Source: an uncultured Bacilli bacterium (lineage in GTDB: Bacteria > Bacillota_I > Bacilli_A > RFN20 > CAG-449). From it: a DNA stretch of 64,000 nt. The notes below the pieces were generated by a model that saw only the letters and a program-made list of their open reading frames with translations, was not told the origin of the DNA and ran no database searches. Made by a program: the position numbers and the translations under genes. Below, in pieces: positions 39,111 through 43,305 of this stretch (position 1 is its first letter; every line of letters begins with the position of its first letter). The stretch is taken from assembly GCA_947632435.1 (NCBI GenBank), contig CANRPC010000001.1:75986-139985 (forward strand). Direction: 5' to 3'.

Positions 39111-41786
39111 ATGGAAAAAGTATTTCAATTGCGAATTAAAAAAATTATTAGCGTTTCTCTTACCATTGTCAGTTTTTTATTATTACTTATTTTGATGAAT
39201 TTACCATGTAAAGATTCATCATTATCAATTTTTCGAAATTTAAATTTCCAAGATTTTTTTGAAAGTAGCACGAAAATCTCCTGTTTAATATTTTTAATTT
39301 TGTTTTTCTTAAACTTAATTAGCAATGTTTTTATTGTGATATTTTCGTTAATAAATAAAGAAGAAAGTAAGATATTTTTTATCATTAATGCATTTATATA
39401 TTTAATTTTTTTAACTCTAGGAAATATAAATAAAGTATTAATTTTTGGACATAATTTTATTTTATATACTAACTTAATTTTGTTATTATTATATTTAATA
39501 TATTGTTTAATATATAAGTTATATAATGAAAAAAAGAATTCTTTACCTCAAGATGAAAATATAAAATTTAATTTGTCAAAAACGATTATCTTAATTATTG
39601 ATGTTTTAAGTTTTTTGACAATCGTTCTTTGTTTATTTATTCCATTTGCTAATATATATAAAGATGAACCTTTAACTCTTTCTCCACTTAATGTTTTATT
39701 CAATAATGTATCTTATATTGAGGATTTAATTCTTCTGATAATAATTTTAATTGTAAATTTTATAAGTGGTTTTTATTTATTAAATACTATTAATAATTTC
39801 AATAACGAATCATTTTATAAAAAAAGTAAAAAATTAATAAATCTTAATTTTGTTTTTTCTTTTATTTACTTATTAAGTGGCATAATTTATGGTTTTGTTA
39901 TTTCTTCTCTTTCTAAATTTAAATGTGTAACATTTTCTTATATTCCAACGATAATTTCATCTTTTATAAGTATTATATTCGCTTATTTTTATGGTAAAAA
40001 TTCTAATAAAGAAGAAAAAATAAATGCTAAACCATTTGTAAGTAGAATAGAATCTTTTATTTATGCATTGTTATTTTTTGGTATAACAATTGCTACGCTT
40101 TTTTTGAATATTATAAAAATTAAATTTACTTATCCTTTTGGCATGGAAGAAATTACTATTAATGGATTCGATGCCTTAACAAAATATTTGGAACTTGGAA
40201 AAGGGCTGCAAATTGTTTCATATGTAATTTATGTAAGTGTTATTATTTCTTCATTATTAGCCTTATGTTGTATCTTTAGTTTTGCAAGTAAATCAAAAGT
40301 TTATCCACGTATTTTCTTAATTAGTATTATTACTGATACGGTTTTAATAACCTTAATTGGTTTATTTGGTAAATATTATGAAATTGCTCAATTAATAAAT
40401 GATGAAAATATTAAAACGATTATTGAAAATTTTGGTATAAGTAGCCAATTTGATTATGAATATAAAATAACAAGTGATGCTTACTATATGTTTTTAGGGG
40501 CAGTATTATTATTAGCTATTGTCATTATTAGAATTCCTTATACTAAATTATGTTTAAATGAAGAAAAAAAGCAAACTGTTATTGATAATAAAAATGGTTT
40601 AAAAATTCTTAATAATAATGATAAGAAATTAAATAATAATGAAGAATTATTAAAGGACAAGAAAAATGTTCTTGATCAATGTCCTTCATTTAGTGAAATA
40701 GATGCAAAATTTAATGAATTTCAAAATATTTTAAATAGTAAAAAAGAAAATAGTTTTGCTAATTTAAATCTTCCAAATTTAGTTAGATTTGTTGTAAGAT
40801 ACGCTAGAGAAAGTCGTTTGCATTTATTTTATTCCTATGAAGATATTGCTTATTTTATTGCTTCTTTAGGATCAAGTAAACTTTGTATTTTACAAGGTAT
40901 GTCAGGTACAGGTAAAACAAGTCTTCCAAAAATATTTCTTGAATCAATCATGGGTAATGTGGAAATCGTGGAAGTAGAATCATCATGGCGAGATAAAAAT
41001 GAATTACTTGGATATTATAATGAATTTAGTAAAATTTATTCTCCTCGTAAATTTACGCAAGCTTTATATCGCTCTAATTTAAATAAAGAAACAATCACCT
41101 TTATTGTTTTAGATGAAATGAATTTAAGCCGTGTTGAATATTATTTTTCTGACTTTTTATCTTTGATGGAAAATGAAGTAGATAAACGTGAATTAAAGCT
41201 TTTGAATACTAAAATATATAAGCTTCAAGATGATGAAAATAAAGAATCATATTTAGCATTAAAAGAAGATCATAGTCTTTTCGTTTCGGAAAATGTATGG
41301 TTTATTGGAACGGCAAATAAAGATGAATCAACATTTGAAATATCTGATAAAGTCTATGATAGAGCTATGACTATGAATTTTGATAAAAGAGCAAAAACTC
41401 AAATTACATATAATGAAGATATTAAACCTTCATTTGTTTCTTTTGAAGCTTTGCAAGAACAATTTCTTCTTGCAAAAAAGACCTTTAATTTTAATGTAGA
41501 TGAATGTGAATTAATTAAACAAGTTGAAAAAATATTAATTCCTTATAATATTTCTTTTGGTAATCGTATCGCGCGTCAAATTGAAGACTTTGTGAAAATA
41601 TATTGTTCTTGTTTTGATAATCCAAATCAAGTTCTTAATGAAGCAATTGAAAGAATTTTATTAAGCAAAGTTGTTTATAAATTGGAAATGAAAAATATTG
41701 AAAATAAAATGCAGCTTGCTTCAGAATTTGAGCGTTTGAAACTATATCGTATAAAAGATTTCGTCTTAAAATTAAATGAGGATTAA
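39111..41786 (+). CDS. Fusion protein: N-terminal ~480-aa polytopic membrane domain (about 12 TM) plus a C-terminal McrB-family AAA+ (AAA_5) NTPase domain
   Basis: TM-rich first half. C-terminal Walker A LQGMSGTGKTS, Walker B plus McrB-like VLDEMNLSRVEYYFSDFLSLME (McrB has DEINRAN..VFGEL..LLE), and FIGTANKDESTFEISDKVYDRA (McrB has IIGTMNTADRS...LDAALRRRF). Confidence 0.6.
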   Translation: MEKVFQLRIKKIISVSLTIVSFLLLLILMNLPCKDSSLSIFRNLNFQDFFESSTKISCLIFLILFFLNLISNVFIVIFSLINKEESKIFFIINAFIYLIFLTLGNINKVLIFGHNFILYTNLILLLLYLIYCLIYKLYNEKKNSLPQDENIKFNLSKTIILIIDVLSFLTIVLCLFIPFANIYKDEPLTLSPLNVLFNNVSYIEDLILLIIILIVNFISGFYLLNTINNFNNESFYKKSKKLINLNFVFSFIYLLSGIIYGFVISSLSKFKCVTFSYIPTIISSFISIIFAYFYGKNSNKEEKINAKPFVSRIESFIYALLFFGITIATLFLNIIKIKFTYPFGMEEITINGFDALTKYLELGKGLQIVSYVIYVSVIISSLLALCCIFSFASKSKVYPRIFLISIITDTVLITLIGLFGKYYEIAQLINDENIKTIIENFGISSQFDYEYKITSDAYYMFLGAVLLLAIVIIRIPYTKLCLNEEKKQTVIDNKNGLKILNNNDKKLNNNEELLKDKKNVLDQCPSFSEIDAKFNEFQNILNSKKENSFANLNLPNLVRFVVRYARESRLHLFYSYEDIAYFIASLGSSKLCILQGMSGTGKTSLPKIFLESIMGNVEIVEVESSWRDKNELLGYYNEFSKIYSPRKFTQALYRSNLNKETITFIVLDEMNLSRVEYYFSDFLSLMENEVDKRELKLLNTKIYKLQDDENKESYLALKEDHSLFVSENVWFIGTANKDESTFEISDKVYDRAMTMNFDKRAKTQITYNEDIKPSFVSFEALQEQFLLAKKTFNFNVDECELIKQVEKILIPYNISFGNRIARQIEDFVKIYCSCFDNPNQVLNEAIERILLSKVVYKLEMKNIENKMQLASEFERLKLYRIKDFVLKLNED

Positions 41787-43305
41787 TATGTTAAAAGACA
41801 ATCCTTTTGAAAATTTATTAAATCTTCAAGAAGACTATAAAGAAGTAGATACTTTTTTAAAAAACTATAATAATTGTTCAATTATCGAATTTGATTATCA
41901 TTTAACTCATCATTTTAATTTATATACTCATTATGATAATTTTGATTTTTCAAGTTTAGAAAGTAATCTTGATTTAATAGCAAATAACTTATCTTCATTA
42001 AAACGTATTGCTTCTTCACCAATTATTCGTTTAAAAGATGATATGGATACCTTACCTATTGAAGCAGTTTTTAAAATAAATTATAAAACTTTACTCCATG
42101 CATCAAATCACAGCGAATTATTTTCTCAATATTATGATTCAAATTTATTACCAAGAAAATTATTAACTTATATTAATGTCGATGAATATTCCATATATGA
42201 AAATGTGGGATATGTATTCTTAATAAGTAAAATTTTAGAATATTTAAAACGTAATTTAAGAATAATAAAAGATATGCTTTATACTAATAAAACTTTAGAT
42301 TTTAATGCATTAGAAAGAATACATCATACTTATTATTTTTTAGCTCTTGGCAAATTACAAACAAGTTATTTAGTAAATTTAGATAAACAATATGATAAAT
42401 CCTATTACTTATTGAATAAATTAAATTATTTAAAAAATAGTATTGATGCTCATTTAATAAACCCAATATTTAAAAAAGTAAAAGTTGTTGATAAATTTTC
42501 ATTAAAAAAGACAAATATATTTTTACATCAAAAAGATTATAAAAAAGTCTATAATTTATTAAGAATTTATAATAAAAAAGAAGATAAAGTAGATGATAAA
42601 AAAAATATAAGCATAGTTTTTTATGAAAACTATCTTCATTATTTAAAAATTCTATTTGTTTTTGCAATCTGCCATTTTAATTTTAAATTGGAAAATCAAA
42701 AAATTGATTTTAACAATTTTGATTTAAAATTTAATTTTCAGAATTGGAGTTTAAATTTAAGAGATAGTTTTTATAAAAATCATAAAGGTATTTTATTAAA
42801 AATAAAAAAGGAAACAGAATATAAAATTTTTATTTTACCTTATGAAGAAAAATTATTTTCTAATAAAGAATTTATTGAATATCGCGCGGATGAAATTGTT
42901 TTTGCTTCTTATTTTGAAAAAAACGATACTATTTATATAAGCAATAATAATTTAAATTCTTTTCAACGATTACAACAAATAATTCAAAGAGCTATGATTT
43001 ATAGCGATTATAAAAAAGAAACTTGTCCTTTCTGTGGAAATAGTTTAGAAAGACTTAAATCAAATAAGCACCCTACTTGGTTATGCTCAAGTTGTCATAA
43101 CAAAATAATTTCTTTTAATTGTAAAGTAGAAAAAAAGAAATATTTTGCAACAACAATAGATAATTTTCATAATGAAATTGAAAATATTAAAGATGAATAT
43201 TTATATTCTCGCTATGTAGAGGGTTTGATGTTCTATCGTAATATTACTTCAATTGATAACAAATTAAATTTAATCTGTCCATATTGTAAAAAAATTCATT
43301 ATTAA
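41776..43305 (+). CDS. McrC-like partner protein (inferred) with two C-terminal CxxC zinc-ribbon pairs
   Basis: 509-aa ORF overlapping the upstream McrB-like gene by 11 nt (the classical mcrBC coupling). C-terminal CPFCGNS...CSSCHNK...CPYCKK. Possible PD-(D/E)xK-like RADEI...YFEKND. No direct family motif verified. Confidence 0.35.
   Translation: MRINMLKDNPFENLLNLQEDYKEVDTFLKNYNNCSIIEFDYHLTHHFNLYTHYDNFDFSSLESNLDLIANNLSSLKRIASSPIIRLKDDMDTLPIEAVFKINYKTLLHASNHSELFSQYYDSNLLPRKLLTYINVDEYSIYENVGYVFLISKILEYLKRNLRIIKDMLYTNKTLDFNALERIHHTYYFLALGKLQTSYLVNLDKQYDKSYYLLNKLNYLKNSIDAHLINPIFKKVKVVDKFSLKKTNIFLHQKDYKKVYNLLRIYNKKEDKVDDKKNISIVFYENYLHYLKILFVFAICHFNFKLENQKIDFNNFDLKFNFQNWSLNLRDSFYKNHKGILLKIKKETEYKIFILPYEEKLFSNKEFIEYRADEIVFASYFEKNDTIYISNNNLNSFQRLQQIIQRAMIYSDYKKETCPFCGNSLERLKSNKHPTWLCSSCHNKIISFNCKVEKKKYFATTIDNFHNEIENIKDEYLYSRYVEGLMFYRNITSIDNKLNLICPYCKKIHY

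Follow-up and report, generated by a model that had tools for sequence, protein, structure and literature searches.

The stretch of DNA analysed here (the window) comprises 64,000 nucleotides (nt) from an uncultured Bacilli bacterium (GTDB lineage Bacteria; Bacillota_I; Bacilli_A; RFN20; CAG-449; GenBank assembly GCA_947632435.1, contig CANRPC010000001.1, positions 75,986 to 139,985 of the forward strand) and has a GC content of 25.6%. Located within it, between a type-1 BREX island and a mur/dcw cluster, are two adjacent genes, which, together with their parts described below, lie on the forward (+) strand. Gene 1 (39111..41786) codes for a protein of 891 amino acids (aa), in which a predicted 12-helix membrane domain is fused to an McrB-like (NxD-type) AAA+ GTPase, as judged from the open reading frame (ORF), an AlphaFold2 model and a family alignment. 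Gene 2 (41788..43305) codes for a 505-aa zinc-ribbon protein, which is described as an McrC/CnuC-like partner based on the ORF, independent gene calls, its linkage to gene 1 and an AlphaFold2 model. An initial annotation, made from the sequence alone, had put the pair forward as a candidate membrane-associated McrBC-type defence system, and both of its reading frames, the 891-aa frame at 39111-41786 and the downstream frame ending at 43305, are present. The pair is very probably a two-gene module of the McrBC superfamily, belonging to the NxD branch and composed of a membrane-fused GTPase and an McrC/CnuC-like partner.

A protein identical to the gene 1 product (P0001) is encoded on other contigs, and the AlphaFold2 model of this product, built on a 34-sequence alignment, has a mean local confidence score (pLDDT) of 83. 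The module is widespread: a pattern scan of 185,579 species genomes returned at least 541 loci that encode a relative. The linkage, GC and neighbour counts given below refer to the best 80 of these loci, all from species-representative genomes.

The McrB-type GTPase domain

The GTPase module occupies aa 521-891 of the gene 1 product (40671..41783) and was delineated by hhalign, PADLOC and a sub-threshold match to Pfam AAA_5. It contains a Walker A motif, GMSGTGKTS (aa 596-604; 40896..40922), a Walker B region, VLDEMN (aa 666-671; 41106..41123), which is aligned to IIDEIN of Escherichia coli McrB, and a sensor-1/McrB signature, GTANKDES (aa 733-740; 41307..41330), which is aligned to GLMNTADRS of E. 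coli McrB and includes the ‘NxD’ residues N736-x-D738-E739. In a gapless alignment to the NTAD residues of the E. coli protein, E739 occupies the position of the Asp. The C-terminal signatures that the initial annotation had quoted as McrB-specific, GMSGTGKTS (596-604), VLDEMNLSRVEYYFSDFLSLME (666-687) and FIGTANKDES...DKVYDRA (731-752), are all present and invariant in the family, and invariance of Walker A and B was seen both in 10 family members and in a 34-sequence set that includes soluble relatives.

Sequence searches are blind to McrB in this case, as hmmsearch against PDB sequences with the single sequence and with the family profile produced no McrB or McrC and only noise (zeta toxin, BILF1 and eL43 zinc ribbons), and a profile-profile comparison was therefore needed. 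With hhalign, the family profile was aligned to residues 130-444 of E. coli McrB with a probability of 95.6% (E 1.2e-8), the 288 aligned columns covering the entire GTPase, and IIDEINRANLSKVFGEVMMLME of E. coli McrB was paired with VLDEMNLSRVEYYFSDFLSLME of the gene 1 family at Walker B. The same profile was aligned to the E. coli MoxR protein RavA, used as a control, at 1%. Pfam AAA_5 scored 21.1 bits on the window protein, just below the cut-off of 22, which is exceeded by the relatives P0011 (24.8 bits) and P0013 (41 bits); P0013, a distant relative, combines AAA_5 with an MrcB_N DNA-binding domain. No match to Pfam AAA_3/MoxR was found in the gene 1 product. PADLOC assigned the model PDC-M26A at E 2.4e-44, a match confined to the GTPase part (best stretch, positions 224-441 of 724). 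Structure comparison of the model with the PDB using Foldseek returned the AAA+ fold, with dynein, MoxR, MCM, Lon and BrxL in the top ranks, and does not discriminate within this group.

A search with the GTPase domain only retrieved over 6000 proteins. The nearest soluble relatives share 37-48% identity with gene 1, possess charged, heptad-like and coiled-coil-like N-termini (e.g. P0160 and P0171) and contain the pre-ATPase motif ICPALTAID (QCPSFSEID in gene 1), GTANRDES and GTANRDESTFEITDKVYDRA. Judged by these motifs and profiles, the C-terminal domain is predicted to be an McrB-type GTPase of the NxD branch.

The membrane domain

A Kyte-Doolittle scan detected 12 hydrophobic segments between residues 12 and 475 of the gene 1 product, which agree with the long helices of the AlphaFold2 model and with the approximately 12 transmembrane helices that had initially been proposed for the N-terminal ~480 aa. 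Also modelled are a strand at 450-454 and short β-hairpins at residues 180-190 and 333-351. The predicted cytoplasmic loops are richer in Lys and Arg (28 in 128 residues) than the other loops (14 in 144 residues), in keeping with the positive-inside rule. This distribution fits an N-in/C-in topology, which would therefore place the GTPase at the cytoplasmic side of the membrane. Residues 1-500 gave no Pfam match, and no N-terminal nucleic-acid-binding specificity domain was found in them; the membrane domain occupies the position that such a domain has in McrB proteins.

The domain is modular and consists of three 4-helix blocks, of which 4, 8 or 12 helices are present in different family members and the last block is always retained. 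Block 1 (aa 1-148; 39111..39554) contains helices 1-4, as defined by hydropathy and an alignment of relatives, and is missing from the 8- and 4-helix variants. Block 2 (aa 149-304; 39555..40022) contains helices 5-8 and the hairpin at aa 180-190, which is predicted to lie outside, and block 3 (aa 305-500; 40023..40610), with helices 9-12, is retained by all variants; the AlphaFold2 model contributed to the definition of both. A variable, low-confidence linker (aa 501-520; 40611..40670), with pLDDT values <50 at residues 500-517 and a mean pairwise identity of 14%, connects block 3 to the GTPase. The three-block build is deduced from natural variants and not from similarity between the blocks: in 8-helix variants of about 750-815 aa the alignment starts at query residue ~150, and in 4-helix variants of about 560-590 aa it starts at ~327, with P0098, for example, covering aa 327-479. 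Similarity between the blocks in hhalign comparisons was weak and not significant (probability 1-9%, E 0.004-0.04), with blocks 2 and 3 aligned in register.

The two halves of the protein are conserved to very different degrees, the mean pairwise identity within the family being 28% for the membrane domain versus 66% for the GTPase. Among 62 full-length members, the conserved residues of the membrane domain are P178, P279, G352, L356, Y359, G365, G420, Y422 and I425, which are found mainly in predicted outside loops and chiefly in block 3 (G352, L356, Y359, G365, G420, Y422 and I425), and no conserved charged residue was found within the membrane helices of the same 62 proteins. The domain appears to be private to this family. 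When 1.84 billion representative proteins were scanned with residues 1-500 in HMMER, 81 of them matched, essentially all of which are ~750-1000-aa fusions of the same family or fragments thereof, and no other architecture containing the domain was found in this set.

The initial annotation had named an artefact of low-complexity, AT-rich coding as a reading of the hydrophobic region that would count against it. The GC content of the 80 related loci ranges from 24 to 60%, and the 31 loci with a GC content of at least 45% encode mostly 8 or 11-12 helices. Since the helices are retained across this whole range, the artefact explanation was rejected and the membrane domain is considered real.

The partner protein

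The AlphaFold2 model of the gene 2 product (pLDDT 78.8) consists of an N-terminal mixed region with a β-hairpin, long helices (residues 137-295), a four-stranded meander with a helix (312-406) and zinc-ribbon strands. The N-terminal region (aa ~1-165; 41788..42282) appears to be related to DUF2357, the N-terminal domain of McrC, and includes the invariant residues R73, P90, H108 and Y137-E138-N139. Overlapping with its end is a long-helix, coiled-coil-like region (aa ~137-295; 42196..42672) with the invariant residues G188-K189-L190 and K249-D250-Y251. It is followed by a small β/α domain (aa 296-406; 42673..43005), delineated with AlphaFold2, the alignment and Foldseek, in which W320, K341, Y345, E369 and S391-F392-x-R394-x-Q396-Q397 are invariant. 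A first predicted zinc ribbon, C413-P-F-C416 ... C433-x-x-C436 (43024..43095), is based on invariant cysteines and on weak Pfam zinc-ribbon matches in 26 of 35 members of the partner family, and a second predicted zinc site (43120..43299), read from the alignment, comprises C445, C497-P-x-C500 and H504, with the invariant residues E478 and R484-N-I-T487 between the ligands. All of these ligands are invariant in the partner family, which is well populated, except for H504, which is nearly invariant. The two C-terminal CxxC pairs of the initial annotation are thus three (C413/C416, C433/C436 and C497/C500), accompanied by C445 and H504. The zinc ribbons may bind nucleic acid.

The relationship of this protein to McrC is detectable in parts of the family only. 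DUF2357 was matched by 5 of the 35 members, one of them above threshold (P0022, whose residues 3-160 score 30.4 bits, the cut-off being 23.3), and the window protein itself contains no Pfam domain above noise, DUF2357 included. A hhalign comparison of the partner family with E. coli McrC gave no similarity, Foldseek found nothing below E 0.4 for the partner model in the PDB, PADLOC models searched at E <= 0.1 did not match the protein, and a VWA domain was not found in it. In contrast to these comparisons, the partner family was aligned with the partners of two soluble, coiled-coil-type relatives of gene 1 at 99.7% (locus L090) and 99.9% (locus L088) over ~370-430 columns, and the zinc motifs CP(F/I)CG, CxxC and CPxC are common to both groups.

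The initial annotation had also pointed to a possible PD-(D/E)xK-like motif. No conserved D...(D/E)xK is present in the partner family, the small β/α domain included, and the assignment of the partner as a PD-(D/E)xK nuclease, which has no Pfam, fold or motif support, was dropped. Linkage, DUF2357 and CnuC-like homology uphold the proposed McrC-type partner, whereas its nuclease activity finds no counterpart in a detectable domain: from its sequence, gene 2 is predicted to encode the cognate McrC/CnuC-like partner of gene 1, with no recognisable nuclease active site.

Linkage and distribution of the gene pair

The co-occurrence of both genes, which the initial annotation had suggested examining across genomes, is strict: in all 80 loci they are adjacent and in the same order, with the partner directly downstream. 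In nearly all of these loci the genes are separated by 1-5 nt or overlap by 1-14 nt, the modal gap being 2 nt, and they are apparently co-translated. In the window, two start codons can be considered for gene 2, ATG 41776 (509 aa and an 11-nt overlap with gene 1) and ATG 41788 (505 aa). Only the latter is preceded by a Shine-Dalgarno sequence (GAGGA, 41778..41782, located 5 nt upstream and inside the final codons of gene 1), and the same start was chosen independently by gene callers on three metagenomic contigs that encode identical proteins. For these two reasons gene 2 most likely extends from 41788 to 43305 and begins 1 nt past the stop codon of gene 1. The 11-nt overlap, which had initially been likened to that of mcrB and mcrC, rests on the less likely start and is probably a start-codon artefact; for comparison, mcrB and mcrC of E. 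coli overlap by 1 nt.

The hosts include Clostridia, with bins of Acutalibacteraceae, Oscillospiraceae, Christensenellaceae and Lachnospiraceae, as well as Bacilli and Mycoplasmatota (Anaeroplasmataceae, Acholeplasma and Mariniplasma), and are mostly represented by gut, rumen and faecal metagenome-assembled genomes (MAGs). The chromosomal position of the pair varies between orders. Among the proteins encoded within two genes of the pair in the 80 genomes (132 upstream and 137 downstream), the commonest family accounts for no more than 6 of the 132 upstream and 4 of the 137 downstream neighbours, recurrent families come from related genomes, and no nuclease family is among the top-25 tallies for these 269 flanking proteins. 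In IMG/VR (2.9 million viral contigs), five distant relatives were found, all of which are GTPase-only.

Several loci deviate from the usual arrangement. In L092:3380-6167, a 545-aa ORF, presumably the membrane part, overlaps a 388-aa GTPase ORF by 17 nt; this split version belongs to a cluster of 119 sequences and may be due to a frameshift or represent a genuine two-polypeptide form. The complete genome of Mariniplasma anaerobium encodes a 220-aa GTPase fragment (P0184), and in L024:9623-11194 the partner gene is split into ORFs of 320 aa and 195 aa. A Bacillales MAG contains a second, divergent B-like gene (L062:7247-9064), 3 kb downstream of the main pair, for a protein of 605 aa with 4 helices and a hidden Markov model score of 232 versus 950 for the main copy; no partner-like ORF was detected beside it before the end of the contig.

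Relationship to known systems

In the census of Bell et al. (eLife 2024, PMC11090510), the NxD signature, ‘usually followed by E or D’, defines a major uncharacterised branch of McrB proteins, which includes the CoCoNuT and CoCoPALM systems. CoCoNuT systems (CnuB/CnuC) resemble the pair in their NxD GTPase with N-x-D(-E), in the 37-48% identity of the gene 1 GTPase to coiled-coil-fused relatives and in their partner, as gene 2 is homologous to the partners of coiled-coil relatives and has three CxxC motifs. One of these relatives is encoded in the CoCoNuT-like locus L090, where genes for PP2C, a kinase, two UPF1-like helicases and BrnT adjoin, a CoCoNuT-type neighbourhood. According to the census, the coiled coils of reduced Type II CnuC proteins are shortened, their nuclease is inactivated and their CPxC motifs number two or three (PMC11090510), and we infer that the architecture of gene 2, a DUF2357 region with a helical insertion, a possibly degenerate nuclease and a zinc ribbon, is similar. 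Unlike in CoCoNuT systems, gene 1 has a membrane domain of 4, 8 or 12 helices in place of a coiled coil, and in the 80 loci the pair is not accompanied by genes for HEPN or other nucleases, the CnuH helicase or TerY-P; it is a strict two-gene module. In a further locus, L088:55-7941, a soluble coiled-coil relative of 628 aa and a homologous 715-aa partner are adjoined by small ORFs and a phage-type integrase, and this soluble version appears to ride on a mobile element.

The only membrane-linked relatives of the NxD branch reported in the census are the FtsB-like transmembrane/coiled-coil fusions of CoCoPALM, the remainder of the branch having been deferred (PMC11090510). CoCoPALM thus provides a precedent for membrane-tethered McrB relatives of this branch. 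It differs in having an FtsB-like domain, composed of transmembrane and coiled-coil helices, and in its association with signal-peptidase and pilus-assembly genes (PMC11090510), whereas gene 1 encodes a polytopic protein with structured outside loops, lacks a long GTPase coiled coil and has no such neighbours. Classical McrBC systems (E. coli EcoKMcrBC and that of T. gammatolerans) share a homologous GTPase, a partner gene immediately downstream and the combination of a variable N-terminal domain with a conserved motor. In contrast to these, the signature is NxD here and NxxD there, gene 1 lacks a DNA-binding N-terminal domain, and gene 2 is not detectably similar to E. coli McrC and is without a PD-(D/E)xK site. 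The closest kin of the pair, as judged by sequence comparison, are the coiled-coil CnuB/CnuC pairs of the NxD/CoCoNuT-like branch and not classical McrBC.

Gene 1 is also like the PADLOC candidate system PDC-M26 in matching PDC-M26A; since only the GTPase part is matched and the partner is not, the pair would not be called PDC-M26. Among well-known membrane-associated defence systems, KwaA is a small multi-helix protein and ZorAB of Zorya is a membrane-embedded sensor. Kiwa (KwaA/KwaB) and Zorya (ZorAB) are comparable by analogy only, in that a polytopic membrane component is combined with a cytoplasmic, nucleic-acid-directed component; they have no sequence or domain relation to the pair, in which the putative sensor and an McrB-type motor reside in one polypeptide. 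Kiwa has been reported to sense membrane changes upon phage infection (PMC11785009).

The text of the CoCoNuT paper and its supplementary files in text form (PMC11090510) contain no polytopic fusions and none of the taxa described here, and literature searches on PDC-M26, CoCoPALM follow-ups and membrane-bound McrBC returned nothing relevant. The view that no McrBC NTPase had been described as a polytopic membrane protein is thus in agreement with the searchable literature, in which no description of the membrane-fused variant was found, and the pair is therefore regarded as a new, common and compact form of the McrBC superfamily.

Function and proposed mechanism

As to function, we marginally favour a role of the pair in defence against mobile elements. 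This role is suggested by membership of the superfamily, the PADLOC candidate match and the fast-evolving, modular N-terminus, as well as by the variable position between orders, the decayed copies and, in the window, the adjacency to BREX. The combination of a fast-evolving membrane domain with a conserved motor also recalls, by analogy, the pattern of McrB specificity domains. Two arguments of the initial annotation do not carry over to the family, namely the gene overlap and the defence-island context: a BREX island ending at 38439 does lie directly upstream here, and no defence-island enrichment was found around the 80 relatives with Pfam and PADLOC. A putative defence function is therefore derived from family membership. 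Similarly, of the original proposal of an McrBC-type defence system, the McrB-like membrane-fused GTPase with an McrC-related partner stands, whereas restriction in the manner of McrBC is left without an identified catalytic effector, as no nuclease is detectable.

A number of observations weigh against the proposed identity or function. McrB is absent from the top 50 of the 814 PDB matches returned by Foldseek for the gene 1 model. No GTPase of the NxD branch had been characterised as of the 2024 census (PMC11090510). The neighbours within two genes of the pair are mostly housekeeping genes, only ~5% of them give defence-type matches (Pfam and PADLOC), many of which are generic, and a conserved third gene is not found beside the pair in any of the 80 loci. 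Column identity in the GTPase core is 84-94%, which is unusually high for a defence gene, and no membrane-fused copies were detected in the IMG/VR viral contigs. None of the 35 members of the partner family matches a nuclease family in Pfam, and the case for defence is weakened by this missing effector. In seven Anaeroplasmataceae-like species, the pair shares its flanking genes, of which one is LD-carboxypeptidase-like and two are further conserved genes, with identities of 52-76% for the pair and 59-88% for the flanking genes, and this shared synteny indicates long vertical inheritance at a fixed site.

If the pair does act in defence, its mechanism can be modelled on that of McrBC, which forms a GTP-dependent hexamer whose ring is entered by the N-terminal region of McrC, stimulating hydrolysis (Niu et al. 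2020, as cited in PMC11090510). GTP-bound gene 1 subunits would form a hexameric ring that up to 72 helices tether beneath the membrane, the partner would enter the ring with its N-terminal region and stimulate GTP hydrolysis, and the zinc ribbons of the partner would bind nucleic acid. The membrane domain may serve as the input or specificity module in place of a reader domain; the outside loops that hold most of its conserved residues belong to the block retained by all variants. Adsorption of a phage, injection of a genome, conjugative entry or a similar event at the cell surface or membrane may be what it reports, and such an event would place or switch on the GTPase-partner complex where foreign nucleic acid enters. 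The output could be interference with the nucleic acid or a GTP-driven disturbance of the membrane that aborts infection.

A more specific version of this model, which we put forward tentatively and consider improbable in all its details, is immunity without a nuclease: six subunits would encircle the axis of the McrB pore with a ring of up to 72 transmembrane helices, adsorption of a phage or injection of its genome would be detected by the conserved outside loops of the innermost 4-helix block, and partner bound to incoming nucleic acid would trigger GTP hydrolysis, upon which the entering genome is captured or blocked, or the ring of helices opens as a lethal pore. If true, this would be the first functional assignment for any McrB of the NxD branch. 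The textbook logic of McrBC combines a variable reader, a conserved GTPase motor and a nuclease; here, a polytopic membrane domain takes the place of the reader and the nuclease is missing, and yet at least 541 species-level genomes, from Bacillota and Mycoplasmatota of the gut and rumen, have conserved the module. An immune function would mean that a surface or membrane event is coupled directly to an McrB-type motor, and with its two genes the pair would make the uncharacterised NxD/CoCoNuT branch easy to approach by experiment. Members of the family are common in the gut microbiomes of humans and animals, whose phage-host biology is poorly understood.

The strongest alternative, which we regard as unlikely and yet deserving of serious attention, is a housekeeping membrane machine, in which an anchored McrB-type ring and a zinc-ribbon adaptor act in an envelope, division, membrane-protein or nucleoid-membrane process of Bacillota and Mycoplasmatota. 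The fixed synteny in the Anaeroplasmataceae-like species is in line with this, as are the very highly conserved motor, the lack of a nuclease and that of membrane-fused copies in viral contigs. FtsB-like and pilus-assembly proteins are, moreover, linked to the related CoCoPALM clade (PMC11090510). Envelope-related neighbours also recur among the 80 loci (Peptidase_S66 at 6, diaminopimelate (DAP) dehydrogenase at 5, Peptidase_S11 at 2 and LGT at 2), and in the window only 41 nt, in which no terminator is predicted, separate the pair from murE-mraY-murD-ftsW-murG-murB downstream of it. On the other hand, the location differs between orders and no neighbour family exceeds the low counts given above, split, frameshifted and fragmentary copies occur, even in the complete Mariniplasma genome, and all characterised superfamily members are enzymes of restriction or defence. 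Anaeroplasmataceae and Acholeplasma are wall-less, and the presence of the pair in these bacteria as well as in walled Clostridia argues against a peptidoglycan-specific role. Should the pair turn out not to be immune in function, it would be the first housekeeping use of an McrBC module.

We consider it rather improbable that the pair is a classical DNA-cleaving McrBC system, in which a PD-(D/E)xK partner would cut modified phage DNA at the membrane. Apart from the McrB-type GTPase and the McrC-type N-terminal region of some partner-family members, such a reading could draw on the strand-helix order modelled for aa 296-406 of the partner, which would be compatible with a restriction-endonuclease-like core, and on the invariance of K341 and E369. 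It is opposed by the lack of nuclease families among the 35 partners, of a significant structural match in the PDB, of similarity to E. coli McrC and of a conserved D...(D/E)xK; two positions before K341 there is a hydrophobic residue. In addition, K341 is apparently not conserved in the partners of soluble relatives, as read from the alignment, the family is without a domain for reading modified DNA, and the nuclease domains of the related Type II CoCoNuT CnuC proteins are inactivated (PMC11090510). Finally, a reading of the pair as a chaperone ATPase of the MoxR type whose adaptor is no nuclease, with no relation to restriction systems, was rejected as highly improbable, since the Foldseek top matches 2r44, CbbQ, NorQ and RavA and a weak bpMoxR match of P0013 are outweighed by the hhalign results for RavA (1%) versus E. 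coli McrB (95.6%), the lack of an AAA_3/MoxR match, a partner that lacks a VWA domain and shares homology with the partners of CnuB-like GTPases, and the NxD-E residues, which are a signature of the McrB branch.

Genomic surroundings in the window

Upstream of gene 1, a putative extended -10-like element, TGgTATAAT (39079..39087), can be read from the sequence and serves as a lead only, followed by a Shine-Dalgarno-like sequence, AAGGGA (39097..39102), 8 nt before the ATG at 39111. At the local GC content of 22-26%, a promoter consensus scan was uninformative (70 promoter-like sites versus 68 expected), and so was the scan for terminators, which predicted 0 terminator-like structures between 38300 and 45000.

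Between BrxL and gene 1 lies a gene (38477-39004) for a cyclophilin-like lipoprotein (Cyclophil_like2), the N-terminus of which contains a hydrophobic stretch and the lipobox-like sequence LFSC; in the 80 other genomes, no such gene was seen among the frequent neighbours of the pair. A spacer of 41 nt (43306-43346) separates gene 2 from murE, after which come mntP, mraY, murD, ftsW, murG and murB, up to ~52500, and transcription of the pair could read through into this cell-wall and division cluster. In some other genomes, genes for an LD-carboxypeptidase, a DAP dehydrogenase or a D-Ala-D-Ala carboxypeptidase are found upstream of the pair.

The BREX island (23655-38439), the adjacency of which is peculiar to this genome and not general to the family, encodes BrxA, BrxB, BrxC, a PglX-like methylase, PglZ and BrxL, and is preceded, just upstream of BrxA, by a DUF1848 gene (22555-23484, E 4.8e-92). 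Located between the PglX-like ORF (28464-30314) and PglZ are three ORFs without Pfam matches (30437-31045, 31015-31818 and 32907-33842) and a RhuM-family gene (31836-32894). The PglX-like ORF codes for 616 aa, whereas PglX is usually about 1200 aa in length, and the BREX methylase may, for this reason, be truncated, interrupted or rearranged here.

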